A stretch of DNA of 32,000 bases. It comes from Methanothermobacter thermautotrophicus str. Delta H. Its GTDB lineage: Archaea > Methanobacteriota > Methanobacteria > Methanobacteriales > Methanothermobacteraceae. Within the stretch, counting starts at the first letter, position 1, and each line of letters opens with the position of its first letter. The DNA lies in assembly GCF_000008645.1 (NCBI RefSeq), contig NC_000916.1, forward strand, positions 510,001 to 542,000, written 5' to 3'. Under the pieces are notes generated by a model. It did no database searches. It worked only from the letters and a program-made list of their open reading frames with translations, and was not told the DNA's origin. Shown piece after piece: positions 1,113 through 26,784 of the stretch. A program made the position numbers and the translations under genes.

Positions 1113-2085
1113 TCAGGTGAATTTGGACAGCCTCTCAACCCTCTTAAGCATGTTCGGGTGTGTTGATAACAGTTCAAGGATCCTTGCACCCAGTCCGACC
1201 TTAACTCCACCGTATTTTATCCTCTGGAGTTCAGCGAGGTCTATGGTCCCATCCATGTTCATGTCAAGCTGGCGGAGGTCCTCTATCTCACCGTACGCCG
1301 CTGACACATCATTCAGGAAGAAGGCCTTGACACCCTCGACCTGTTTCAGGTCGTCCCTGTTGAACTGGGCTGAGCCGTAGCACAAGCTTGTAGAGTGCGC
1401 TTGCAAGTTTGTGTGGCTGACCACCAATCTCCACACTACCCTGGTCAGCGTAGTACTCCCTTGTCCTTGATATGAAGAGTACTATGAGCTGACCTATGAA
1501 GTATGCAATGAGGGCTGCAATACCCACCAGATTTGCCTCATCATCCCTGCTGAAGACCGTGCTCCAGAATATGTAGTAGCATATGAGGGGGACGGCGCTC
1601 ACCAGGGTCATGACTATCATGTCGCTGTGCTTTATATGGGAGATTTCATGTCCGAGGACTGCCCTCAGTTCCTCCTCATCAAGGAGGTTGAGTATTCCCC
1701 GGGTCACACAAACCCTTCCATCAGCCTTTGTTCTTCCGAAGGCGAATGCGTTGGGCAATGCGATCTCCGCTATTCCGACCATTGGTTTGGGTATGCCGGC
1801 CCTTCGTGCAAGTTCATCCACCATTGCATGCAGTCGGGGTGCCTCGGCTTCGCTCACGTAGTGGACGTTCATTGTGAGTTCCACTATCTTCGGGGAGATG
1901 AGGTACTGCAGGAATATCACTCCGAAACCCAGGAGGGCATAGAAGAGTGGTCCTCCAAGTCCCAGGATGGATCCTACGACCATGAGTATCGCATAGATCA
2001 ATCCGAATAAAAGTACTGTCGCCAGGAACATTCTGAGCTTCAGTTTCCATGTGCTGAGTCTTCTCATTTTGGCTTTTTCCTCCAT
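1113..2085 (-). pseudogene. htpX: HtpX-type M48 zinc metalloprotease, reading frame broken by one extra base at about 1380
   Basis: ORF 1309..2085 has N-terminal TM helices, HEISH (HExxH) and REYYAD. It reads ...KLASALYKLV, then runs out of frame to a stop at 1309. ORF 1113..1436 continues seamlessly in the next frame as YGSAQFNRDDLKQVEGVKAFFLND...STHPNMLKRVERL, a typical HtpX C-terminus. Junction on the minus strand: gtg (1383-1381), extra c (1380), tac (1379-1377). Confidence 0.85.
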
Positions 2086-2325
2086 CGAGCCATTAGTTAC
2101 AAAGTGTTATTTTATTATGTGATGATATAAATCTTTTGTTATTATTGTAAGGTATGGAGGGCCCTGAATATGGAGGTTCCTGACTGTAAGCACGGTAGCC
2201 GGGATCCGCATGTAGCATAGCACTCCGACCAAAGAGACCATTCCCTGAGACCCAAAGTTTATTAAATATTAAAGTATATTTCATATTAAGGGGATGATAA
2301 TATCAGGAATCTATGGAAAGTTCTA

Positions 2326-3258
2326 ATGTTAGTGACCATCTTTGCCCTTATCGGATCCAGTCAGGCCGTCCAGATAGGCAATACAAGTTACGGCTATGTT
2401 GAGAAGGACTACTACGGTAACCAGAGCTCCAATGAGACCATAGGACTCATAATAGGGGTTCATCCCCGTGAGTCAGGTATACATGAAGCCGTGAGGAAGA
2501 CCCTCCAGACCTCAAACCTCACAAAAAGATACGTCCTCTACAGCGTCCATGTGACATCCAATGCCTACGACTACTCGAAGGGCCGTATGAACGGCCAGCT
2601 ACTTGCAAGGAACTTCATTGTACCTGATGTAAAGAATGAGAAGCCCATGCTGGTCATTGACTGCCATGAAAACCTTTACCGTCAGAGTGGATACGCATAC
2701 CCCCGCTTCCTCTATGTGATCTCAGAGAACCTTGCAACCATAAATTACACGGAACAGATAGTATCCAGGATGGGCTTCCTGAGAGTATATACACCCCCAA
2801 AGGCAACGAGTCCTCAGTACGTGACAGTGCCGATAGCCTCACAGGGATACAGCACCATAATATATGAGACCTATAAATATGACAGCCAGTCAAGAAAGCT
2901 CAGCGACGCAGGTATGTTCATATCATGCCTTGAAAGCCTCAGAACCTACATTTCAAGGGGTATAAACATCACTTCAAGTAGCCCGGCTGCGGGAGCTGTA
3001 ACCTCAAGGAGGCCGATAATAAGGGTCACCTTCTCAAAGACAATAAAACCTGGAAGGTACTGGAGCAGGGTAACCCTCAAAAACAGGTATGGTAAATCTG
3101 TGAGGGTCAGGACATGGGTTTCCGGTAACACCCTCTATGTGAAACCAGTCTACAGGCTATCCCGGAACAGCTGGTACACCCTCACCATACCGGCCGGTGC
3201 ACTGGTTGACGCCCCAGAGAATAAATGGACGCTTAGGTTCAGGACCGGGAGAAGATAG
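2326..3258 (+). CDS. Secreted protein: N-terminal HxxE...H putative zinc-hydrolase-like domain plus C-terminal SbsA/Big_5-like Ig domain
   Basis: Hydrophobic N-terminus ending SSQA/VQ looks like a signal peptide. GVHPRESG (HxxE) and VIDCHEN resemble M14/AstE-type metal ligands. The last ~95 aa (SSSPAAGAVTSRRPIIRVTFSKTI...GNTLYVKPVYRLSRNSWYTLTIPAGALVD...LRFRT) fit the SbsA-Ig pattern. The domain assignment is from motif memory only. Confidence 0.55.
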   Translation: MLVTIFALIGSSQAVQIGNTSYGYVEKDYYGNQSSNETIGLIIGVHPRESGIHEAVRKTLQTSNLTKRYVLYSVHVTSNAYDYSKGRMNGQLLARNFIVPDVKNEKPMLVIDCHENLYRQSGYAYPRFLYVISENLATINYTEQIVSRMGFLRVYTPPKATSPQYVTVPIASQGYSTIIYETYKYDSQSRKLSDAGMFISCLESLRTYISRGINITSSSPAAGAVTSRRPIIRVTFSKTIKPGRYWSRVTLKNRYGKSVRVRTWVSGNTLYVKPVYRLSRNSWYTLTIPAGALVDAPENKWTLRFRTGRR

Positions 3259-3281
3259 GGTAGAAAAAAACCATTCTTCAT

Positions 3282-3291
3282 TTATTTTTTA
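3282..3291 (+). terminator. Oligo-T tract (tttatttttt) after the 2326..3258 gene
   Basis: T-rich run about 25 nt after the stop codon. Confidence 0.3.
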
Positions 3292-3399
3292 GAATTGTTC
3301 TAATGATGGATATGTAAGCCTAGAGAATCGTTGGGAGATCTTTTCTTTTTCTGGATTATAAAACTGCAGGATAAAAGCGCTTCTGTGCTGTTTTCTACA

Positions 3400-4191
3400 C
3401 TAACATTTCATTAATTCCCTGATGATTTCATCCACTTCATTTTTAACAGCATATGCTCCCAGTGATTCCCCTTTTAGATTCATTTTGGTTATAGCTGGTG
3501 AATAAGGTAGAACACCTTTAATTTCGTTACCCTCTGAAGTTAATAGTTCTGTCAAAATTGGCTCCGTTTCCTCATCAATTTTGTTGAGGATTACTCCAAA
3601 ACGTTTATCTGCTTCATGGGTAAGTTTTGCAGCCTTTTCTGCTAGTAGAACTGCATCACTGGAAGGATCTACCACCATCACTACAGCATCTGCCCCCTCC
3701 ACTATTCCACGCCCGAAGTGTTCTACTCCTGCTTCAGTATCTACTAAAACCCATTGATCTTCTTCTAATCTTACATGATTCAGGAAATCTCTCGTTACAG
3801 CTCCCATAGGACAGGCACATCCCTCCATTGCATGATCAATTTTTCCTATCTGCATTAAACCTAAAGATCCAACCCAGCACACAAATTCCTGTGATAGACT
3901 CTCTAGATCAAATTTTTCCCTGAAAAGTTCGGGTTCAGTTTCCCCATCTCTGATCATTGACCTCAACTTTTTCATTACACGAGGTTTACCGCCAAGATAA
4001 TCCATGAGAGTTTTCTCTGCTGGCTCAATTCCTAAGATCCCACTTAATCCAATATTAGATTCATCCGAATCAACAACCAGGACCCTTTTTTTCTGTTCTT
4101 TAAGTGTGTGAGCTATTAAAGTTACCAGCGTGCTCTTTCCACTTCCGCCTCGACCACTAATAATTAACTTGGGCATGCCGAAACCTTCCAT
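3400..4191 (-). CDS. CooC/AcsF-family (MinD/ParA-type) nickel-insertion accessory ATPase-like protein
   Basis: Deviant Walker A GRGGSGKST; VVDSDES; CxC metal motif EGCACPMG; DTEAGVEHFGRG. These are the signature blocks of CooC-type maturation ATPases. A more likely start is ATG 4176 (MPKLIISG...). Confidence 0.8.
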   Translation of the reverse strand: MEGFGMPKLIISGRGGSGKSTLVTLIAHTLKEQKKRVLVVDSDESNIGLSGILGIEPAEKTLMDYLGGKPRVMKKLRSMIRDGETEPELFREKFDLESLSQEFVCWVGSLGLMQIGKIDHAMEGCACPMGAVTRDFLNHVRLEEDQWVLVDTEAGVEHFGRGIVEGADAVVMVVDPSSDAVLLAEKAAKLTHEADKRFGVILNKIDEETEPILTELLTSEGNEIKGVLPYSPAITKMNLKGESLGAYAVKNEVDEIIRELMKC

Positions 4192-4197
4192 CTTGAA

Positions 4198-4744
4198 TTA
4201 TTCCATCCTACAGTTCCAGTTATAAGGGATTATATCATTATCAAGAGGATTGACCCTCCTTTCATCAACATTTTCAGGATCGTAAAGAAGAGAAGGCATT
4301 CCGATTACCACCGATATTTTATTACCTATATTTTTCGTACCGTGAAAAATTCCAGGAGGGATATAGACTACACAGGGACATTTTTCACCCATAAATATCT
4401 CATTAAGGACCTGATATGTAGGTGAATCTTCCCTGTAATCATATAGGGCAAGCTTTACCATTCCCACGACACAGATCAGACGATCTTCCTGTTTAGAGTG
4501 AAGATTCCAGCCCTTGATCATCTTTGGATAGGAATATGAAGCAATTAATTTGCCTGATATTCTCTCCTTTCAGTTTCTTGTCATCCAAACGAAGGAGTTC
4601 CATCAGGAATCCCCTTTCATCACTGAACATTTTCAGATCATTTATAACCACTCCGTCAATGAGTTTTTCTCCATAAAAACCTGGAATATTTTGAACTCGT
4701 GGCTTTTCCAGTTCATCAAAATTTTTTAAACTTTTTGGTTTCAT
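4198..4744 (-). pseudogene. RmlC-like cupin (dTDP-4-dehydrorhamnose 3,5-epimerase family), frame broken by one extra base at about 4543
   Basis: ORF 4493..4744 gives ...FSDERGFLMELLR...GENIRQIN. Skipping base 4543 continues the reading as ASYSYPKMIKGWNLHSKQEDRLICVVGMVKLALYDYREDSPTY...IPPGIFHGTKN (ORF 4198..4521). Together they form a full-length (~180 aa) RmlC-type cupin. Confidence 0.75.
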
Positions 4745-5379
4745 TCGCGGGTCTCCCTTTTTTCATACATCCATGCTAAAGGATCCTTGCCATCCGGGAA
4801 CATTGCACCGTAGGGTTCAAATTTATTGATATCGCTAACAGTGCAGAAATGCATTCCACGATCCGATTCTACCATCATTAAAGGGTTAGCCTTCTCTATG
4901 TCCCATGAACCATCTTCTGGATTGTAGATATCATCGTTCACTTCAAGATGCACAACTTTACCGAGGATCAATAAATAAGGAAAGCCTTCATACTCATCTT
5001 CATAAATGTTATGCAGTTTACATTCCATCCATGCATAACACCCTTCAATTCCCGGTGCTTTAACCTTTTTTGAGGGTCTTTCCTTTAAATCCGCCAGTTC
5101 AAATTCATTAACATCAAAAGGAACATGCGAAGCTGTTGGTATCACTTTATCAACCATTTCAACCCCTGGCATATTAATAACAAATTCCCCAGTGTCTTTG
5201 ATATTAACAACTGTGTCTCTCATCTTTGCTGAAGCCACACAGATCAGATCAAAGGGGCGTAAAACTGGCATAACACATGAATAAGGTGCTATGTTCCTAA
5301 TTCCATCTTTACTTGTCGTTGAGATAAATGTCACTGGCAGCGGTATCAGAGATTCTCTCTTAAAATTTTCAAGTATCAT
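4741..5379 (-). CDS. Flavin reductase-like (FMN-binding split-barrel) domain protein
   Basis: [26 protein letters not shown]...[26 protein letters not shown] matches the flavin reductase-like domain pattern. There is a 4-nt overlap with the downstream cupin gene. GGTGAT Shine-Dalgarno-like sequence lies before the ATG. Confidence 0.7.
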
Positions 5380-5879
5380 ATTATCACCAATCCATAATTT
5401 TTTTCCTCTCGTATATATAAATATTAGTTCTAAATCAAAAAGTATTATTATTTTGCCGTATATTCTTTAATGCTTATTACTACTTCCTGTAGTGGTGGTT
5501 TAAAGTTGAGGGAACTCGTGGAGTATGTATTATCACATCCTCCAAAGAAAATCAAAAACAACAATCACTCAAAAGAATTCGCTGGAAGTTCAGATAACCT
5601 ATACGAGAATCTTATGGATTTAGTGCTGGATTAGCTAATTAAATTGAGTTAAAAAATGAAATGGGGATTCTAACAGTATCCTGGATCAAAATACGAATAT
5701 AGGTGGCAAAATTATATAAGGAAGACATTAAAGATCTGAACACTTTCAGGGGATTATTATGAGAGCTGCGGATTATATAAGATATTCTATCTGAATCAGC
5801 AGCAGAACCGAAGAAAAAAGAAGGATAGAATTCCACAGCAGCTGAAGCCGCCTTAAATCCGCCGAGTCCATTTCAAGTT

Positions 5880-6545
5880 TCAGAGGATACCGTTCCTTTT
5901 AAGGAGCCTCCTGGGGTTCTTCACAAGCGCCTCCTCCACTCCGGACTCGGTTAGACCTGCCCCGAGGCCTATCCTCCGTGCCATCTCATAGTCGATCAGA
6001 TCCCCCGGTGCATGGGTATCCGTGTCAATCACGATGGGGACACCAACCTCCCCTGCAATGGCTGCCACGTGACCATTACCAAGGCAGTGCCCCTTCCTGG
6101 CACTTATCTCAAGGGTCACATCATTCTCACGGGCCAGTTCAACGTCCTCAATCGTTATCAGGCCCGGATGGGCCAGTATATCAACCTCCGGGCAGCTTAC
6201 CGCTGCATGGTTGGTGCCCGGGATCACCGGCTCCACCAGGGTTTCGCCGTGTACAACAATCACCTCGGCCCCGAGCCTCCTTGCCCTCACTGCAAGTTTC
6301 TCAATTATCTCAACGGGCGCATGTGTGATCTCAGCCCCCGGGATAACCGTGATGTCCCAGTTATCACCTATGTCCTCCACGGCGTCGATGAGGTTTGTTA
6401 TGGTGTTTATGTTCGAGGCGTCTATGTGGTCAGTGATGGCTATTGCCTCATGTCCAAGTACACAGGCCCTCCTTGCAAGTTCGGATGGCAGGAGCTCACC
6501 GTCACTCAGGAGGCTGTGGGTGTGAAGATCTATCCTCTTTCTAAT
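5880..6545 (-). CDS. PHP-domain metal-dependent phosphoesterase; conserved N-terminus has no canonical start codon
   Basis: The track ORF (5880..6380) starts at MEDIGDNW. The same frame stays open upstream and encodes (I)[44 protein letters not shown], the metal-binding N-terminal PHP motif. No ATG/GTG/TTG occurs in that frame between the stop at 6564-6566 and 6380. Confidence 0.7.
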
Positions 6546-21117: not shown

Positions 21118-22005
21118 CTAAAAACTGTATAATGTGTTCAGAAGTTCAAGGGTAACTGACTCCAGTTCCTTTTCATCGAGTTTCTGGAGTATCTCAACTG
21201 CGGCCCTGAAACTGGATGCAACACCATCAGCATTATTCCTTATGAAGTCAAGGGTCCCGAGGAGGACCAGGGCTACTGCGAGGCCAAGCTCATTATTTGT
21301 TTTCCTGAAGAGCGCCTCAGCCTTTTTAAGGTATCTCCGGGACTCATCAAAGTCCTCATTTTTAAGGGAATAGAGGCCAAGGAGTAGCTGGAGTGATGCC
21401 TCAGTGGATGTGTCACCTATATCCCTGGCAATCTGGTAGGCCTCCATTATCTGTGAGATTGAATCCTCATAGGAACCTGCCTCATAGAGTGTTAGGGACT
21501 GGACACTGTCAACCAGCCTGTTAAGCAGGGGCTCAATGACCTCAAGGTCAACCTCCGGCATCCCGGATTCAGACTCCTCCCGGAGCCTGTTGATGCTGGC
21601 TATATCCATGGCCTCCCTGATCTTCTCAACCTCCTTGATCTTCTCCCTTAGATCAGCCCTTAGAGGTGAGTTAACTGATGTGTAGATTCTGAGGGCCTCC
21701 ATGAAGTATTCCATGGCGGTCTTAACCTTTCTATCGCTGAGGTAGACGTCACCCATGGAGTCAAGGGCAAAGGCCATGAGTTCCTCGTCATTCATTTCAG
21801 AGGCCACCCTGTAGGCCCTTTCAAGGTAATCAAGGGCCTCGCGAGTATCACCCTCCTCGGCGTAGAATCCTGCTATCCTTACAAGGGTGTCAAATTCCTC
21901 CTCAAGAAGATCTTCAAGTTTTCGGAGATACTTCTCAAGTGATTCGCCCTCATCTTCACCCCTGAGAAAATCAAAGATTCCCAGAACAGCAAATATCATC
22001 ATCAT
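21118..22005 (-). CDS. TPR-repeat protein
   Basis: Repeated ~34-aa helical units with (A/G)xxY...A(L/I)xxY(F/L)xxA patterns, e.g. ALDYLERAYRVA, AMEYFMEALRIY, SRRYLKKAEALF. Confidence 0.7.
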   Translation of the reverse strand: MMMIFAVLGIFDFLRGEDEGESLEKYLRKLEDLLEEEFDTLVRIAGFYAEEGDTREALDYLERAYRVASEMNDEELMAFALDSMGDVYLSDRKVKTAMEYFMEALRIYTSVNSPLRADLREKIKEVEKIREAMDIASINRLREESESGMPEVDLEVIEPLLNRLVDSVQSLTLYEAGSYEDSISQIMEAYQIARDIGDTSTEASLQLLLGLYSLKNEDFDESRRYLKKAEALFRKTNNELGLAVALVLLGTLDFIRNNADGVASSFRAAVEILQKLDEKELESVTLELLNTLYSF

Positions 22006-22038: not shown

Positions 22039-22092
22039 TCCAGATTTAAATACCTATTTCCGGAAGACGTAATAGCTCCAGATTTAAATACC
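22039..22092 (-). promoter_or_regulatory. Two perfect 16-bp direct repeats (tccagatttaaatacc), each containing the palindromic TATA-like ATTTAAAT, upstream of the TPR gene
   Basis: Copies at 22039-22054 and 22077-22092 (38-bp period). The proximal ATTTAAAT lies 39-46 nt upstream of the ATG at 22005, a plausible archaeal TATA box position for a short leader. Confidence 0.4.
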
Positions 22093-22146: not shown

Positions 22147-22261
22147 ATTGCCCTTCATGTTATCAGCCCACTTTAATGCCCTGATCCGTTATCCTCGGAT
22201 ACAAGCAATGAGTTATTGCCCTTCATGTTATCAGCCCACTTTAATGCCCTGATCCGTTATC
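22147..22261. repeat. 47-bp perfect direct repeat (22147-22193 and 22215-22261) duplicating the 3' end of the KaiC-like gene
   Basis: attgcccttcatgttatcagcccactttaatgccctgatccgttatc occurs twice. The second copy covers the last 31 nt of CDS 22231..22905 including its stop, plus 16 nt of 3' flank. Confidence 0.95.
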
Positions 22262-22905
22262 ATGTAGGGTGCCTCCGTCCTTTCACCATCCATTACAGCA
22301 GATATCACTGATCCATCCATCTGGATGTGCACATCAAAGAGGCCGGGTATCTCCTCCTCTATATCCTCATCAGCAACACCTGCTGTATATGTCACGAGGG
22401 CGATGCCCCCCGCATCCCTCACACGGTCATTGTAGGCCTTCAGAACCCTTAGAACAAGTTTTGGGGGGTTGAATGCCAGTAGAATGGATGCTGAGTCAAA
22501 CACGGATATCATGGTGCCCTCCTCCTGGTAGAGGCTCCTCGTCGATATCCCCACCTTCACCATGAGGTCCGTTGTGTTCTGGATGGCCGAGTACCTCACG
22601 TTTCCAGAGTCCCGGGGTTTACCCCCTGCAAGACCTGTGGGGAGGTCTATTACATGAAGTTTATCTGCGAGGGACTGGATGAACCAGTTGAATGCCATGG
22701 TGTTCCTCTGAAGATCCCTGTAACCGTATTCAGCCGCTATGAAGAGGCAGGGGTTCCGTCTCTGAAGGGCCCGGTAGGTGAACTCTGTTGCAAGTACTGT
22801 CTTACCAACCTTTGGGGGGCCTGTTAACAGCATGAGGTACCCTGGCTCAGGTTTGCCGAGAACAGCGTCAAGACCCGCTATACCTGTGCTGTAGTTTTCG
22901 CTCAT
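22231..22905 (-). CDS. KaiC/RecA-superfamily ATPase, single domain (KaiC-like paralog 2)
   Basis: GIAGLDAVLG...GYLMLLTGPPKVGKTVLATEF (Walker A), VFDSASILL (Walker B-like). ~224 aa, similar to archaeal single-domain KaiC/FlaH-like proteins. Confidence 0.75.
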   Translation of the reverse strand: MSENYSTGIAGLDAVLGKPEPGYLMLLTGPPKVGKTVLATEFTYRALQRRNPCLFIAAEYGYRDLQRNTMAFNWFIQSLADKLHVIDLPTGLAGGKPRDSGNVRYSAIQNTTDLMVKVGISTRSLYQEEGTMISVFDSASILLAFNPPKLVLRVLKAYNDRVRDAGGIALVTYTAGVADEDIEEEIPGLFDVHIQMDGSVISAVMDGERTEAPYMITDQGIKVG

Positions 22906-22906
22906 G

Positions 22907-23608
22907 TTATCCCTCGTGGACCACCTTAATGCCTGAATCGTCTATGGTATAGGGGGCGCTGACCCTGCCTGTCCCCACCATCGCCTCAACTGTAAGTTCG
23001 GATCCATCGAGGTGTATTATGTTATCAACAACTGCCTTGAGCATGGTCTCCACCTTCGGATCAGCCGAACCCTCGGTGTAGGTTACCACAGCTGTTCCAC
23101 CGGCTTCCTTGATCCTCATTATGTATGCTGTAAGAACACGGACTATTAGCATCTCATCATTGAAGGCCATGAGGGTTGTGAGGGAGTCAAGGACCGACCT
23201 GAACATGCTGTAACGGTTCGTGATGTTCCTTATGGCAACCCCGAGTTTCACCATAATATCTGTGGGGTTGTGGACCGATGAGGAGAAGTATGTGCTGCCC
23301 TCATCACCTGAAGGACCTGATATGCTGGATATGGCGTCTATCACATAGAGGAGTTCCTTCTGCAGGTATGATTCAGGGTCCATGCCAAGTACAGCCATAT
23401 TCCTTTTCAGGTCGGATAATCCATAATCTGCAGATATGTAGAGGCACGGTTCATCCATCTCAGCCCCGCCGGCTGCAAACCCATAGGCGAATATTGATTT
23501 ACCGACCTTCGGTGGACCGTAAACCATGGTAACAGTGTTTTCAGGTATGGAAGCGCCGCCCATGAGTTCATCGAGGCCCCTTATTCCAGAAGGAATTCTG
23601 ACAATCAT
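22907..23608 (-). CDS. KaiC/RecA-superfamily ATPase, single domain (KaiC-like paralog 1)
   Basis: GIRGLDELMGG...VTMVYGPPKVGKSIFAYGF (Walker A), SVLDSLTTL (Walker B-like). Its C-terminus (PYTIDDSGIKV) is paralogous to the neighbour's (PYMITDQGIKV). A 1-nt spacer separates it from the next gene. Confidence 0.75.
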   Translation of the reverse strand: MIVRIPSGIRGLDELMGGASIPENTVTMVYGPPKVGKSIFAYGFAAGGAEMDEPCLYISADYGLSDLKRNMAVLGMDPESYLQKELLYVIDAISSISGPSGDEGSTYFSSSVHNPTDIMVKLGVAIRNITNRYSMFRSVLDSLTTLMAFNDEMLIVRVLTAYIMRIKEAGGTAVVTYTEGSADPKVETMLKAVVDNIIHLDGSELTVEAMVGTGRVSAPYTIDDSGIKVVHEG

Positions 23609-24790
23609 TCAACCACCGTATAGAAGTCCGAGGAGCGTGTCGAGGGCATCCCTTACACCCCACCCCTCCGTCACCGAGGCGGGTACTATGGGGACATCCG
23701 CTCCAAGTTTCATCATTTCCCTTATCTCCTCAGGTGAAAGGGCTCCAGGGAGGTCCTGCTTGTTCGCAACAACGACCTTGGGTATAGCTTCGGCCCTTGT
23801 CTTCCTTATCATCTCCTTGGCCCTTGCGAAGGTCTCGGGTGCAGTTGAATCAAGGAGTATGAATGCGCCAACAGCCTCCCTTGAGAGCACATCAAGTATC
23901 ATGTCAAATCTCTCCTGACCGGGAGTCCCGAAAATATCCGCCATGAAGCCCTTATATTCAAGGTGACCTATGTCCATTGCAATGGTTGTGGGGAATGCCG
24001 AAAGGGCCTTCCTGTCCACCGAGACCGACTTCGTGGCTATTGCCCTGACGAAACTTGATTTCCCGGAGTTGTAGGGGCCTGTTACAAGTATCTTCGGTAC
24101 ATAGACCTTAACGCCTCCGGGCTGAACAACAAAGAAGAGTACCATGGTTGATGGGGGTTCTGACCAGGCTGAATTGGCCACCATGAAGCCCTGACCTATT
24201 ATGACCCTCTCCTCGATCGTCCTGAGATTCACGACACAGTCCATGCTCTCCCTGAGCTTATCAATGAGTTCAGGTTCATAGTCCCATTCAGTGAAGAGGT
24301 AGACGAGGTTCACATCCAGTTCAGAGGCCCTTCTGTTCCATGCTTCAACTATCTCAAGGGTGTCACCGTTGCCAAGGTAGTCTATAATGACTGAAAGATT
24401 GTTTATTATCCCAACACCGCCGGGTATATCATTTATGGCATTAAGAACAACATCCTTTATCTCGGAGTAGTCATTAACAGTATAACGCTGATCTGATGGC
24501 ATCCCAAGGAACGGTGAGCTACCATCTACAAAGAAAAGGTTGCCATTTTCAATATGTGACTCTATATCCCAGCCATAGGATCTGAATTCATATATTATAC
24601 TCTCAGGTTCCTCAACATTTGTGAATATGAAACCTCTGGTCCCCTCATCCAGGCGGCCGTTTAGCATCTGGTAACCGAATGCCTCATAGTCAACACCCGG
24701 GGATGCTGAGAACATGATGGAGGCTCCCTCCTTCACTCCGCCGCCCAGAAGGTCGTCGAGCTTCGGAATGTATGTCTTATTCATGTTCAC
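23609..24790 (-). CDS. Fusion protein: N-terminal KaiC-like domain lacking Walker A plus C-terminal small Ras-like (MglA/Arf-like) GTPase
   Basis: The N-terminal ~230 aa begin like KaiC-type proteins ([34 protein letters not shown]), but GxxxxGK[ST] is replaced. The C-terminal part has G1 [10 protein letters not shown]3 [11 protein letters not shown] and G4 NKQD. GTGA overlap with the Roadblock gene stop; its own TGA abuts the next ATG. Confidence 0.75.
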
Positions 24791-25167
24791 ATCTCCCTGA
24801 GGATTTCATCCACCTGTGCTGCACGTGAATCCATCTCAAATAGCAGAAGCCCGAGCTGGGCCTCTGGTTCTGCCAGGGCCGTGAATATAGCCTTCTCCCC
24901 TGCAGGTTTGAGTATGATTATCCCCTTCTCGGTCCTCACGGTTATCTCAGAAACAGTTCCTGTGTTCATCTGACCTGAAGCTGCCTCTGCAGCACCCATT
25001 ATCGTTGAACAGAGGGCTGAGAATATTCTTGCATCAACATCCGGAGGTGTCCTTGCATTTATGAGCAGCCCCTCCTTTGAAACAATACCCGCAGCCCTTA
25101 TCTGACCCACCTGCATAAATGCAGATAGAACATCATCCAGCTTTTCCTTCTTTGTCTTGGTCATCAA
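24787..25167 (-). CDS. Roadblock/LC7 (MglB-like) domain protein
   Basis: ~126 aa with the typical pattern ...[44 protein letters not shown]...[26 protein letters not shown]. Confidence 0.8.
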
Positions 25168-25238: not shown

Positions 25239-25302
25239 GTTACTGACCACTTATATCCCTTTAGATTTTGTCCTCTCAGTTACTGGCCCCTTATATCCTA
25301 TT
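25239..25302 (-). promoter_or_regulatory. Two imperfect 24-bp direct repeats (20/24 identical, 40-bp period), each carrying a TATA-like GGATATAAG (minus strand), upstream of the Roadblock gene
   Basis: gttactgaccacttatatcccttt (25239-25262) vs gttactggccccttatatcctatt (25279-25302). They lie in the 146-bp gap between the pilin-like gene and the Roadblock start (25167). Confidence 0.35.
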
Positions 25303-25313
25303 CAGTCATCTCA

Positions 25314-25812
25314 CTACACCCAGATGGTCTCTGATGTTGTGAACACATAGTGATCTGAAAAGGCAGGGTTATGGTAGGTGTTTGTGAGGTTCTCTGTGCC
25401 GAAGGTCCTTGAGATGGATCTCCTGATGCAGAAGTTAACACGGTCAGAGATGGACTCCCTCAGGGATGGTTTCATGGGTGGACCCGACAGCCACGCCCTT
25501 AAACGGAATTTTCTCCTCCCATAGGTGCTGCTGTAGCCATCTTCAATCAGTTCAACCCTCACAACCCTCACACTGGATGGTTCAAGGAGTTCCGGCTTCC
25601 GGGACTGGTAATCATCAAAGGTGACAGCCGGGTACACAGCGATGGTGTCGGTGAAGGCACCCTCAGATGCCCCGGTCCTTGCAGCTGAGTGTGCCTCCAT
25701 CAGTTCAAGCTGGAACTGTATCTGTCCGGCAAAAAGGACCGCGAGGATCAATGAGATGCCAGCCAGCATCATATACTCTGCTGCAGCCTGACCCTGCCGG
25801 GCCCTGGATCAT
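25314..25812 (-). CDS. Class III signal peptide (type IV pilin-like) protein; N-terminus split from its ATG by a probable 1-nt frameshift near 25797-25806
   Basis: In frame directly upstream of the track start (25772) the sequence reads SRARQGQAAAEYMMLAGISLILAVLFAG. This is a close match to the archaeal class III motif QxSxExxxL following a basic leader ending in G, but the frame is closed by TGA at 25809-25811. ATG 25812-25810 is in the adjacent frame. Removing one base in the cagggccc run gives MIQARQGQAAAEYMMLAG... Confidence 0.55.
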
Positions 25813-25843
25813 TCCATCTGAAAGCATGCACGTGACACCCTCC

Positions 25844-26284
25844 TCAGCTCGCTTCTGAGACCATGATAACCGTCCTGTTATTCCTGGGCGTGTTCCTGAT
25901 GGAGTACCTCCCACCGGGTTCAAGGTAAACCCCGGGTGTCCTGCCATAACCATCAGCAACAACCACCGGGTAAATAGTGGAGAATGCCCTCTGGCCGTCT
26001 GCCCAGCCATAGACCCCGCTTGAGTTGACCAGCACACTGTAGTCATCAGTGTGGTTGAGGCGCTCTGGCAGTTCCACCACCACCTCATGACCCGGTCCGC
26101 CTGCAGTGGCAAGGTTAACAGCCTCTGCAACATCTTCCAGGAGTATTCTCATCTCAAGGAGCCTCTCATCTGAGTAAACACCTTCAAGCCTTGCACCGGC
26201 AATAGATACCATCACTGATGCCAGCAGAAGTGTGAAGAAGAGCCAGGTTACTGCATCTGCTGTCACAACACCTTCTGAATCCAT
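25844..26284 (-). CDS. Small secreted/membrane-anchored protein with pilin-like N-terminus (weaker class III signal candidate)
   Basis: MDSEG/VVTADAVTWLFFTLLLASVMVSIAG: a short leader ending in G, then a T-x-D-x4-L segment and a hydrophobic helix, followed by a ~110 aa beta-rich-looking domain. It sits immediately upstream of the second pilin-like gene. Confidence 0.45.
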   Translation of the reverse strand: MDSEGVVTADAVTWLFFTLLLASVMVSIAGARLEGVYSDERLLEMRILLEDVAEAVNLATAGGPGHEVVVELPERLNHTDDYSVLVNSSGVYGWADGQRAFSTIYPVVVADGYGRTPGVYLEPGGRYSIRNTPRNNRTVIMVSEAS

Positions 26285-26361
26285 GGAAATTATTAATAAA
26301 TTTTATTATATAAATATTACTAACGCTGGTGTATTATAGGTTGATCTACATAGAGTGTAAC

Positions 26362-26784
26362 ATGTACTCCCTCGTGGTCTTCACTGGAGGACCCCACAAC
26401 TTCCATGAACTTGAAGAGTTCATTGAGGATGCAGGCGGTATCATAATACAGAGGGACACATTCAGTGTACACCGCGGTCAGTATTTCCTGAGAAACGAGG
26501 TCAGGGTTCTCTGCATAATCCCCCGCTGCGATGAGGATTCCCTTACTGAAACAGCCCGCAGAATAAAGGGTGAAGTGGAGGGCCTCGATGCCGATGATGA
26601 AACCAGAGAAATGATTGAGTCCATCATGGATGTCTACGACCAGCTTGCAGGTGAAGCATCCTGGACAGCTGAAGATGAAATTGGAGTGGATGGGGGGCTC
26701 CTCCATGAGATGGTGGAAATGGAGCTTCTGGATGTAAGAAGCAGGAACGGGGTGAACGAATACCGCCTTTCAGTACAAAAATGA
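26362..26784 (+). CDS. Hypothetical protein (about 140 aa), intact member of a local two-copy family
   Basis: The ORF starts most plausibly at ATG 26362 (MYSLVVFTGGPHNFHELEEFIEDAGG...); the track start at 26329 is in frame. It has a degraded paralog at 27303-27735. The C-terminus MVEMELLDVRSRNGVNEYRLS is reminiscent of a winged-helix wing. Confidence 0.6.
   Translation: MYSLVVFTGGPHNFHELEEFIEDAGGIIIQRDTFSVHRGQYFLRNEVRVLCIIPRCDEDSLTETARRIKGEVEGLDADDETREMIESIMDVYDQLAGEASWTAEDEIGVDGGLLHEMVEMELLDVRSRNGVNEYRLSVQK

Follow-up and report, generated by a model that had tools for sequence, protein, structure and literature searches.

Gene Organisation at the Locus

In the window, by which is meant the whole 32,000-nucleotide stretch of the Methanothermobacter thermautotrophicus str. 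Delta H genome that was analysed, a gene in which an inactivated KaiC-like domain is fused to an MglA-type small GTPase lies in a tightly packed group on the reverse strand (Table 1). The initial annotation had placed a Roadblock/MglB-like gene directly upstream of the fusion and two genes for KaiC-like proteins with intact Walker A motifs directly downstream, and this arrangement holds, the Roadblock assignment resting on PF03259. In Methanobacteriales, the module is flanked by two pilin-like genes on one side and a TPR gene on the other.

Table 1. Features of the fusion gene and its surroundings (positions within the window; K1 and K2 are the two KaiC-like ATPases)
Feature	Position	Strand	Remarks
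TPR protein, 295 aa	21118..22005	-	Syntenic in Methanobacteriales
KaiC-like ATPase K2, 224 aa, Walker A GPPKVGKT	22231..22905	-	1 nt after K1
KaiC-like ATPase K1, 233 aa, Walker A GPPKVGKS	22907..23608	-	ATG abuts fusion stop
Fusion gene, inactivated KaiC-like domain and MglA-type small GTPase	23609..24784	-	391 aa from the likely start, ATG 24784
MglA/Arf-like small GTPase domain	23612..24097	-	Pfam, NCBIfam, PDB sequence and fold matches
G4 NKQD	23753..23764	-	Residues 343-346 (393-aa numbering)
G3/switch with GTPGQ signature	23906..23938	-	Residues 285-295 (393-aa numbering); FGTPGQERF
G1/P-loop GPYNSGKSS	24053..24079	-	Residues 238-246 (393-aa numbering)
Inactivated KaiC-like (RecA-fold) domain	24098..24784	-	About residues 1-229 of the 391-aa protein; Pfam, PDB profile, Foldseek
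Degenerate P-loop replacing Walker A GxxxxGK[ST]	24677..24709	-	Alignment; 1/90 representatives with GK[ST]
Roadblock/LC7 (MglB-like) gene	24787..25167	-	PF03259, E 1.6e-23; stop overlaps/abuts fusion start
20-nt TATA-like element, two copies, GGATATAAG[G/T]GG[C/T]CAGTAAC	25239..25298	-	Upstream of Roadblock gene; candidate core-operon promoter
Type IV pilin-like gene 2, frameshifted	25314..25832	-	Homologs start M..GRGQAAAEY
Type IV pilin-like gene 1, 146 aa, hydrophobic N-terminal segment resembling a class III signal	25844..26284	-	Syntenic in Methanobacteriales

The ORF listing gives the fusion as 23609..24790 on the reverse strand, encoding 393 aa when read from the GTG at 24790. The true start is likely the ATG at 24784, which is preferred because the homologs are also 391 aa long and a GGGAG sequence is found 8 nt upstream. 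The Roadblock gene probably starts at the ATG at 25164, giving a protein of 125 aa.

The two domains meet in frame, without a stop, in the window sequence, and the junction is the same in all homologs, which upholds the reading of the fusion as one ORF. The two halves are entered as separate partial proteins in some MAG records and appear as two overlapping ORFs at one locus (L011), as would be expected if separate genes had been joined by a missed stop or a frameshift; however, the MAG splits are flagged as partial or are broken within the N-terminal domain rather than at the domain boundary, and the continuous frame and the identical junction in over 1,200 homologs, which are about 391 aa long and come from both isolates and metagenomes, rule out such an artefact with near certainty.

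The N-Terminal KaiC-Like Domain

The N-terminal domain was proposed to be KaiC-like, and it does have a true KaiC/RecA fold. The Pfam KaiC model (PF06745) matches residues 5-231 of the fusion almost over its full length (profile positions 2-228 of 231, E 4.6e-16), and the PDB profile matches are KaiC, PH0186 and PH0284 (E 1e-28 to 1e-34). When superposed on PH0284 (2dr3) with Foldseek, the domain reaches a TM-score of 0.87 normalised by target length, with an rmsd of 2.3 A. Since both profile and fold matches are full-length, the initial annotation's caveat that the domain might be unrelated to KaiC or RecA does not apply. Its identity to K1 and K2 is only 14-22%.

The P-loop position corresponds to residues 28-38 of the fusion (393-aa numbering), where SASPGVDYE is aligned with GPPKVGKS/T of the two downstream paralogs. 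The loss of Walker A, noticed initially in this one protein, turns out to be family-wide: the KaiC domain has GK[ST] in only 1 of 90 family representatives and lacks it in the other 89, and 74 of the 90 have an acidic residue where Walker A has its second glycine. The window protein reads IINNLS at Walker B and the Asp is lost (Asn130), while an acidic residue (D/E) is kept there in 66 representatives. In the family profile, the residue aligned with the KaiC Arg finger (LKxRG) is non-basic, and no Arg is present there in this protein. Both halves of the inter-subunit ATP site are missing from the domain, and the window protein has neither of the two marks of an active ATPase, namely Walker A, and a Walker B acidic residue accompanied by a trans-acting Arg finger. 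Judged by its residues, the domain, hereafter iKaiC, is predicted to have lost ATP binding, because the Walker A Lys and Ser/Thr are gone and an acidic residue occupies the phosphate pocket.

The C-Terminal Small GTPase Domain

The Arf, Ras and Roc small-GTPase models of Pfam match residues 233-386 of the fusion (E 2.6e-10 to 1.8e-7), and the NCBIfam model small_GTP scores 51.3 bits against a cutoff of 42.5 bits. The G1, G3 and G4 motifs are all intact, as initially described, and G2 reads PTTIAMD, with Thr-Thr and without Arg. Among the 90 representatives, G1 (GxxxxGK[ST]) is kept in 87, a TT-like G2 in 76 and G3 (GxPGQ) in 71; G4, loosely defined, is kept in 75. The G domain is better conserved than iKaiC, with a mean top-residue fraction of 0.52 versus 0.34. 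In most members a semi-conserved [DE]R is located three to four residues upstream of the G2 Thr, and it is more distant in this protein. With all nucleotide-binding and catalytic motifs present, the domain is working-looking and is predicted to function as a GTPase.

The description of this domain as Ras-like is correct as far as it denotes a small GTPase with intact motifs, but the domain is not Ras in the strict sense; GTPGQ and TT make it MglA/Arf-like. The Ras-type DxxGQ form of G3 is absent, as the Walker B Asp position, four residues before the Gln, is Gly288 (G-T-P-G-Q). The isolated G domain has its best fold matches in Arl6 and MglA-GTPgammaS, and the families that fit it best are Arl, Arf and MglA, not Ras, Rab or Rho. 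MglA-GTPgammaS (6h17) has the highest TM-score normalised by query length among the listed fold matches (0.82), and Arf/Arl and MglA obtain about equal scores in PDB sequence and Foldseek searches.

The domain-boundary analysis and structure prediction suggested by the initial annotation recovered two folds joined by one continuous beta-strand. In the AlphaFold2 model of the fusion (pLDDT 91.1, pTM 0.85), a single strand comprising residues 224-235 is the last strand of the KaiC domain and continues into beta1 of the GTPase. Together with the pTM, this suggests that the two domains are rigidly joined in a fixed arrangement, at least as modelled. Conservation at the junction motif PGG..Y.PK is among the highest in the protein (P232 95%, K233 89%).

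Distribution of the Fusion and Its Partner Genes

Over 1,200 homologs have the same two-domain architecture, about 90 clusters at 50% identity among them. The hosts comprise Methanobacteriales, Methanoperedens, Methanosarcinales, Methanocellales, Methanoregula, Hadarchaeota and DPANN archaea. Methanothermobacter thermautotrophicus-type sequences make up the cluster to which the window protein belongs. A comparison of fused and split versions in other archaea found the fusion to be widespread, and no homolog split at the domain boundary was found; short matches are contig-end fragments or internal breaks. Halves that truly stand alone are confined to more distant homologs and have partners of their own: a stand-alone GTPase with Roadblock at two loci (L086 and L087), and a stand-alone iKaiC with a KaiC-like gene and no GTPase at another (L084). 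A natural triple fusion of KaiC-like, GTPase and Roadblock domains also exists (P0149). Among the matches listed, bacterial relatives of the G domain include conservon-type GTPases of Streptomyces, which have Roadblock genes at a distance of 300-660 nt. The genome contigs were scanned by the G3 peptide pattern alone, and in the matches listed fusion-bearing genomes are under-sampled and bacterial stand-alone GTPases over-sampled. The Chloroflexi GTPase loci are uninformative on an MglB neighbour because the archaeal Roadblock HMM is too narrow there.

A Roadblock gene lies within 1 kb of the fusion in 13 of 17 loci, and three of the other four are truncated at the end of their contig. This conserved adjacency and the triple fusion both favour the proposed partnership of Roadblock and GTPase, as far as gene content can indicate it. 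In 15 of the 17 loci the fusion has a KaiC-like gene as its immediate neighbour, and in the remaining two (L008 and L014) one lies within 5 kb. The gene order of the module varies between lineages, with start and stop codons frequently overlapping; at one locus (L091), KaiC-like, fusion, Roadblock, Roadblock, small GTPase and KaiC-like genes follow in a row. Thus, Roadblock, the fusion and at least one KaiC-like gene are an archaeal module that is conserved across many lineages and often translationally coupled. The statement that the KaiC-like partners have an intact Walker A is true for the window but not outside Methanobacteriales, where they are mostly of the DUF7504 type with a deviant GxxxxGK[E/D/K] loop and some have no Walker A at all. 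This suggests that the partner in these lineages may not be an ATPase either.

The fusion family is large, archaeal, long-sequenced and uncharacterised. No account of the fusion was found in the literature searched on KaiC together with MglA/MglB, Roadblock, small GTPases or GTPase domains, a coverage that does not extend to Makarova et al. 2017, and the arCOG paper of 2015 has no text relevant to it.

Relation to Known Systems

In its G domain, the fusion resembles the MglA/MglB systems of Myxococcus and Thermus, and those of MglA groups 2-5, including the actinobacterial conservon proteins CvnD/CvnB, since it shares GTPGQ, TT and an adjacent Roadblock gene. GTPGQ in G3 and TT in G2 are the signature of groups 2-5, of which group 4 is methanogen-specific (Wuichet & Sogaard-Andersen 2014, PMC4316618). 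This survey covered single-domain proteins only, and it found no conserved neighbours for group 4. By contrast with single-domain MglA (about 160-200 aa), the fusion has 391 aa, including a KaiC-like N-terminal domain of 230 aa. It also differs from group 1 MglA, which has TVPGQ and an intrinsic Arg finger by the G2 Thr, in having GTPGQ and TT and no such Arg. In sequence profile comparisons, the scores of the G domain with Arf/Arl equal or exceed those with Thermus MglA.

Inactivated KaiC-like domains have been described under the name iKaiC and, together with KaiC-like ATPases, proposed as archaeal signalling hubs (Makarova, Galperin & Koonin 2017, as presented in PMC5847659). The iKaiC proteins as presented there share with the fusion a RecA/KaiC fold with a lost ATPase site, a multi-domain signalling architecture and a position beside KaiC-like genes; relative to that account, the fusion differs in having a small GTPase as its second domain and Roadblock in its module. 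Because these adaptors are already published and the family is large and long-sequenced, the novelty of the fusion is lower than the initial annotation implied.

PH0284, PH0186, SSO2452 and the archaellum protein ArlH have the same fold as the N-terminal domain over its full length, but they keep Walker A and B and bind ATP, while the fusion domain has lost Walker A and B and is predicted not to bind it; nor is there an archaellum context here. Like cyanobacterial KaiC, the CI-CII clock ATPase, the fusion consists of tandem P-loop domains of which the first is homologous to CI. However, the second domain of the fusion is a GTPase and not a RecA fold, the first is dead, the CII phosphorylation sites are absent, and the whole-chain Foldseek alignment of the two proteins has an rmsd of about 12 A. 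It is not a bona fide circadian KaiC, as it has only one KaiC-like domain and scores 29-35 bits with the NCBIfam circ_KaiC models, against cutoffs of 408-546. Neither KaiA nor KaiB is found among the neighbour genes of the fusion.

The eukaryotic Rag GTPase-Ragulator system likewise pairs a Roadblock-fold protein with a small GTPase, and the C-terminal domains of Rag make it a GTPase-Roadblock fusion comparable to the archaeal triple fusion. Homology to Rag-Ragulator is not evident beyond the domain level, however, and the fusion has no lysosomal or membrane context. A role in anti-phage defence was rejected, since PADLOC defence models gave no match for the fusion, Roadblock or K1, and only weak generic matches for K2 and the TPR protein.

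Proposed Mechanism and Alternatives

The reading tentatively preferred, at a little under an even chance, is that the non-catalytic iKaiC domain docks a Roadblock-controlled GTPase switch onto an oligomer of KaiC-like ATPases. The G domain would cycle between GTP and GDP under the control of a Roadblock dimer acting as GAP and/or GEF, as in MglA/MglB. iKaiC would be a docking subunit without catalysis that assembles with, or onto, a ring of the neighbouring KaiC-like ATPases (here K1 and K2), and the state of the GTPase and the ATPase or autophosphorylation state of the oligomer would gate each other. Two observations weigh against it: iKaiC, with its low identity to K1 and K2 and neither half of an inter-subunit ATP site, would be hard to place in such a ring, and the deviant or absent Walker A of most partners outside Methanobacteriales makes it doubtful that these are ATPases. 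By physically tying MglA-type GTPases to KaiC-like proteins, the fusion acts as a 'Rosetta stone' from which a complex in four parts is predicted: Roadblock, the G domain, the dead KaiC domain and the KaiC-like partner.

It is also conceivable, but unlikely, that iKaiC forms a ring or dimer of its own and presents several G domains, like the stacked CI and CII rings of KaiC, with K1 and K2 acting as separate upstream or downstream components such as kinases or sensors. PH0284 and PH0186, the structurally closest single-domain KaiC-like proteins, have RecA folds and self-associate, the Foldseek alignments with double-domain KaiC chains span the entire fusion, and both the strong divergence of iKaiC from K1 and K2 and the two loci without a directly adjacent KaiC-like gene fit such an arrangement. 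On the other hand, the adjacency in the 15 other loci, with start and stop codons overlapping in several lineages, is a pattern typical of stoichiometric complexes and counts against it.

Somewhat less probable still is that iKaiC does not oligomerise and either regulates the G domain within the same chain or provides it with a platform for effector binding (in a GDI-like, GEF-like, or membrane- or partner-targeting role), acting through the rigid linking strand. The fixed arrangement suggested by the pTM and the inter-domain strand is consistent with this, as is the high conservation of the junction motif. However, the persistent KaiC-like neighbour would be left unexplained, and stand-alone iKaiC homologs that have a KaiC-like gene but no GTPase argue against a role confined to the G domain.

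That non-canonical binding of nucleotide, or of some other phosphorylated ligand, by the N-terminal domain makes the protein a bifunctional ATPase-GTPase is improbable. The Walker B acidic residue kept by many representatives and a Lys retained in the degenerate loop of one subclade (sEKRxFA) would be compatible with such binding, but the near-complete loss of GK[ST], the acidic residue replacing the second Walker A glycine and, in this protein, the Asn at Walker B and the missing finger Arg all speak against it. An ArvA-like G domain driving membrane vesicle formation, as for HVO_3014 in Haloferax, was rejected as very improbable: ArvA too is an archaeal small GTPase of the Arf-like type, with homologs reported from Methanobacteriota, but it is a single-domain protein of less than 250 aa with ArvB (DUF2073) and ArvC (DUF2072) as conserved neighbours (PMC10927574), whereas the fusion is surrounded by Roadblock, KaiC-like and TPR genes.

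The docking model can be approached directly, since Methanothermobacter thermautotrophicus is culturable and now genetically tractable, which makes the predicted complex testable in it. Archaeal MglA-type GTPases and the numerous archaeal KaiC-like proteins are almost uncharacterised experimentally. If confirmed, the complex would provide an initial entry point into the mechanism of the proposed KaiC-based archaeal signalling network, and would offer insight into how MglA GTPases of groups 2-5 are regulated without an arginine finger. The fusion module is thus a genuine and testable, though not unprecedented, signalling module.

A Possible Link to Type IV Pilin-Like Genes

Two pilin-like genes with class III signals are located upstream in all Methanobacteriales loci examined, and in Parvarchaeota loci a pilin-like gene is found 2.4 kb upstream; the link is seen in these two lineages only. 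The pilin-like assignment is based on the class III signal-like N-termini of the homologs, and Pfam has no family for either protein. In the window, one G is missing from a run of Gs near position 25790, which shifts the frame of the second gene. Neither a pilus assembly ATPase nor TadC was found among the window ORFs scanned.

KaiC-family and Roadblock genes have been reported in association with archaeal type IV pilus loci. In Myxococcus, MglA-GTP acts on type IV pili via SgmX, an all-TPR effector. In a parallel to this, the output of the module in Methanobacteriales would probably run through the downstream TPR protein, and the module may control the type IV pilin-like proteins whose genes lie directly before it. 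It is tempting, if doubtful, to extend this to a GTPase-gated ATPase switch or timer, formed by Roadblock, iKaiC-MglA and KaiC-like proteins, that would set where or when type IV pilus-like filaments form in non-motile methanogens through the TPR effector. The module would then be a counterpart of MglA/MglB/SgmX built on a KaiC-like scaffold, ancient and common to Euryarchaeota and DPANN.

TATA-like repeats are present at 25239-25298 and 22039-22092, and the TPR gene probably has its own TATA-like promoter. To judge from these repeats, transcription of the core operon and the TPR gene may be separate from that of the pilin-like genes.

The fusion gene and its family

The initial annotation described a fusion of a KaiC-like domain to a GTPase, and all the motifs it quoted are found in the ORF (see table). 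The KaiC/GTPase junction lies in one unbroken frame in the window DNA. In Pfam, KaiC (PF06745) matches residues 5-231 (profile positions 2-228 of 231, E 4.6e-16), and residues 233-386 hit the GTPase models Arf, Ras, Roc and MMR_HSR1. In NCBIfam, small_GTP scores above cutoff, the archaeal KaiC equivalogs and ArlH give sub-threshold matches only, and there is no dedicated model for the fusion. The GTG start of the ORF overlaps the Roadblock stop. Because the ATG at 24784, two codons past the GTG, is preceded by GGGAG and yields 391 aa, as in virtually all homologs, it is taken as the start in preference to GTG.

Features of the fusion locus; motif positions are in the 393-aa numbering
Feature	Position	Strand	Location	Remarks
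Fusion ORF	23609..24790	-		393 aa, ORF listing
Degenerate P-loop	residues 28-38		fusion, KaiC domain	
G1	residues 238-246		fusion	GPYNSGKSS
G3 segment	residues 285-295		fusion	
G4	residues 343-346		fusion	NKQD
Roadblock/LC7	24787..25167		upstream of fusion	E 1.6e-23
KaiC-like K1	22907..23608		downstream of fusion	GPPKVGKS
KaiC-like K2	22231..22905		downstream of fusion	GPPKVGKT
TPR gene	21118..22005		follows KaiC-like pair	
Pilin-like gene 1	25844-26284	-		conserved, syntenic in Methanobacteriales
Pilin-like gene 2	25314-25832	-		ORF 25314-25772; conserved, syntenic in Methanobacteriales
TATA-like direct repeat pair	25239-25298		upstream of Roadblock	20 nt, GGATATAAG[G/T]GG[C/T]CAGTAAC, spacing 40
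TATA-like direct repeat pair	22039-22092		upstream of TPR gene	16 nt, GGTATTTAAATCTGGA, spacing 38

The fusion is a real, large family in archaea. A word-indexed search gave more than 1,200 matches, the best 120 of which are nearly all 390-393 aa long (a few 372-401 aa), have the same PF06745 and GTPase domain pair and, where named, come from Methanothermobacter, Methanobacterium or Methanobacteriales. An exhaustive search of 50%-identity representatives gave 1,928 matches, of which about 90 span the full length (350-430 aa) at identities as low as 26%. In GTDB species genomes, the matches listed include full-length fusions in Methanobacteriaceae, Ca. Methanoperedens, Methanocellales, Methanosarcinales, Methanoregula, Hadarchaeota, Woesearchaeota and Parvarchaeota/ARMAN-4. 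An identical 391-aa protein is present in public databases; its cluster, which also has a 393-aa member, carries the names M. thermautotrophicus, sp. CaT2 and M. defluvii, and generic labels ('GTP-binding protein', 'ATPase domain-containing protein', 'KaiC-like domain-containing protein').

The N-terminal domain

The view that this domain is KaiC-related despite lacking Walker A is borne out. Along its entire length, the domain is matched through a family profile to KaiC, PH0186, PH0284 and SSO2452 (E 1e-21 to 1e-34). The AlphaFold2 model of the fusion is confident (pLDDT 91.1, pTM 0.85), and its N-terminal domain superposes on PH0284 with a TMt (TM-score normalised by target length) of 0.87 and an rmsd of 2.3 A. 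At the P-loop, ASPGVDYE aligns with the GPPKVGKS of the two downstream paralogs. Only one of the 90 full-length representatives has GK[ST] here (P0239), while 74 have an acidic residue at the second Walker A glycine position. In 66/90 the Walker B acidic residue is present, but the window protein has Asn there (IINNLS), and the KaiC Arg-finger position (LKxRG) aligns with non-basic residues of the family. Since Walker A, the Walker B Asp and the Arg-finger residue are missing, it is very unlikely that the domain binds ATP or donates a finger to a neighbour. It fits the category of inactivated KaiC named 'iKaiC' in the archaeal signalling literature (PMC5847659); arCOG labels are likewise consistent with this. 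Positions D12, P31, P62, D89, W169 and a junction motif, PGG..Y.PK, are conserved specifically in the family.

The distant member P0239 (L090:259-1368), which is flanked by unrelated genes, shows the reverse decay: Walker A is intact (GDPGSGKS), and G2 and G3 are missing from the GTPase domain.

The C-terminal GTPase domain

The description of an apparently intact Ras-like GTPase holds for the motifs, but the type is MglA/Arf-like (GTPGQ with Thr-Thr; Ras, Rab and Rho score lower), and the domain looks active. G1 is present in 87 of the 90 representatives, a TT-like G2 in 76, a GxPGQ G3 in 71 and an NKxD G4 in 61 (75 when defined more loosely). Conservation is higher in the G domain than in iKaiC, with mean top-residue fractions of 0.52 and 0.34, respectively.

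When the G domain is modelled by itself (pLDDT 92), an additional strand, of a kind also present in MglA, separates alpha1 from the interswitch hairpin. By fold, this domain is closest to Arl6 (E 3.7e-13) and to M. xanthus MglA-GTPgammaS (E 8e-13), and MglA reaches the highest TMq (TM-score normalised by query length) in the list, 0.82; further Arf, Arl and MglA entries come next, ahead of Ras, Rab and Rho. In PDB sequence searches Arf/Arl and MglA rank alike, and the domain is called MglA-type on its motifs and gene context. Bacterial relatives by G-domain profile, among the matches listed, include GTPases of Streptomyces that have a Roadblock gene at a distance of 300-660 nt, the conservon arrangement. 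In a published survey limited to single-domain proteins, GTPGQ with Thr-Thr marks MglA groups 2-5; group 4 is specific to methanogens and was reported to have no conserved neighbours (PMC4316618).

Most family members and stand-alone relatives have a semi-conserved [DE]R 3-4 residues ahead of the G2 Thr-Thr (SVDRxGTT), a spacing that resembles that of the intrinsic arginine in G-alpha proteins. It might represent an intrinsic arginine finger for MglA groups 2-5. The segment concerned is in switch I (residues 257-269 of the window protein, 393-aa numbering), and in Methanobacteriales an insertion, KALSAFP, parts [DE]R from Thr-Thr.

A conserved gene module

The Roadblock gene noted upstream and the two KaiC-like genes with intact Walker A noted downstream are all in place, and these three genes and the fusion are separated by gaps of at most 2 nt. 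Across 17 distinct fusion loci (the window, L001, L003-L014, L088, L089 and L091), a KaiC-like gene directly adjoins the fusion in 15 and lies within 5 kb in the other two; Roadblock is within 1 kb in 13, and three of the four exceptions are truncated by contig ends. Gene order is Roadblock-fusion-KaiC in Methanobacteriales and KaiC-fusion-Roadblock in Methanoperedens, Methanosarcinales and Parvarchaeota. Start and stop codons frequently overlap, a pattern that speaks for selected co-expression and against mere inheritance of synteny.

In Methanobacteriales, L003 and L011 the KaiC-like partner carries a canonical Walker A. The other loci have a KaiC-like protein of the DUF7504/DUF7090 type in its place, in most cases with E, D or K after GxxxxGK; L012 and L013 no longer have the motif at all. 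The deviant GxxxxGK[E/D/K], instead of S/T, is conserved across lineages (L005, L007, L008, L009, L010 and L001:5845-6501).

Natural variants strengthen these links. P0149 (L085) is a single 527-aa chain of KaiC-like, GTPase and Roadblock domains. In the P0192 locus (L091), a KaiC-like gene is followed without interruption by the fusion, a pair of Roadblock paralogs, another small GTPase gene and a further KaiC-like gene. The nearest stand-alone G domain (47% identity) belongs to a V4R-Roadblock-GTPase trio. A stand-alone iKaiC without GTPase, P0205 (L084, 37% identity), is followed by a KaiC-like gene, an MCP gene and cheW, which hints at a chemotaxis link of the iKaiC/KaiC pair. From these variants and stand-alone halves, the fusion therefore brings together two pairs of two components each, one of Roadblock and GTPase and the other of iKaiC and a KaiC-like protein.

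Pilin-like and TPR genes in Methanobacteriales

Two small proteins encoded upstream of Roadblock have no Pfam family. They are candidate type IV pilin-like proteins because their homologs start with class III (prepilin) signal-like sequences, e.g., ...GRGQAAAEYMML and ...KGQLTAEYII. A pilin-like gene also lies 2.4 kb upstream in Parvarchaeota loci; none was seen at the fusion loci of other lineages, and the window ORFs scanned include neither a pilus ATPase nor TadC. An association of KaiC-family and Roadblock genes with type IV pilus loci of archaea has been reported. In Myxococcus, the all-TPR protein SgmX mediates activation of type IV pili by MglA-GTP, and by analogy the syntenic TPR gene is a candidate effector. 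The TATA-like repeat pairs may be duplicated promoters or regulator sites; their positions suggest that the Roadblock and TPR genes are in separate transcription units, a point against the pilus link.

Pilin-like gene 2 is frameshifted at a G run near 25790-25796. Read from a GTG near 25832, the frame gives MHAFRWNDPGPGRVRLQQSI*; in L088, a relative with 97% identity, GGCAGGGGTCAGG stands in place of the window's GGCAGGGTCAGG, and the frame stays open as MHTFISNNPGSGRGQAAAEYMML... Possible causes are a sequencing error in the homopolymer, decay to a pseudogene or phase variation by slippage. Divergent from the pilin-like genes, 26329-26784(+) encodes a small protein that gives a partial N-terminal match to MCR_C (methyl-CoM reductase operon protein C) and likely starts at an internal Met (MYSLVVF...); it is syntenic in all Methanobacteriales loci examined.

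A possible mechanism

Beyond the domain identities, the lost ATP site, the retained GTPase motifs and the conserved partners, the AlphaFold2 model predicts a rigid linkage of iKaiC to the GTPase via one strand. Roadblock might act as GAP and/or GEF for the G domain, which iKaiC would dock onto a KaiC-like oligomer; the nucleotide states of the two could then be coupled, with output through the TPR protein and perhaps also through the pilin-like proteins. As a whole, this chain is plausible but tentative. A homo-oligomeric scaffold seems unlikely, and iKaiC as a cis-regulatory domain somewhat more so. Residual NTPase activity is improbable, with the ATP-site residues missing. An ArvA-like role is more doubtful still; ArvA identity was rejected, ArvA being single-domain and accompanied by DUF2073 and DUF2072 genes (PMC10927574). 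That the halves are not truly one gene, through a missed stop or frameshift, is scarcely credible: apparent splits in metagenome-assembled genomes are flagged partial or break inside the N-terminal domain (L011), and none falls at the domain boundary.

In the literature searched, no description was found of KaiC with MglA or MglB, or of a KaiC-GTPase fusion; Makarova et al. 2017, outside that search, may list the architecture. Inactivated KaiC domains as signalling adaptors are already published (PMC5847659). The fusion is thus no surprise in kind, but the module is well supported and, since the methanogen can be cultured, open to testing.

Other features of the window

A perfect 47-nt direct repeat (22147-22193 and 22215-22261, 68 nt apart) consists of the 3' end of K2 (the last 29 nt with the stop, plus 18 nt) copied into the intergenic region downstream. 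At about 2000-6000, GC falls to 0.38-0.45 vs 0.50-0.55 elsewhere, and the genes there code for a ParA/MinD-like ATPase, a flavin reductase-like protein and a protein with a Big_5 Ig-like domain; given this GC drop and gene content, it may be an acquired island.
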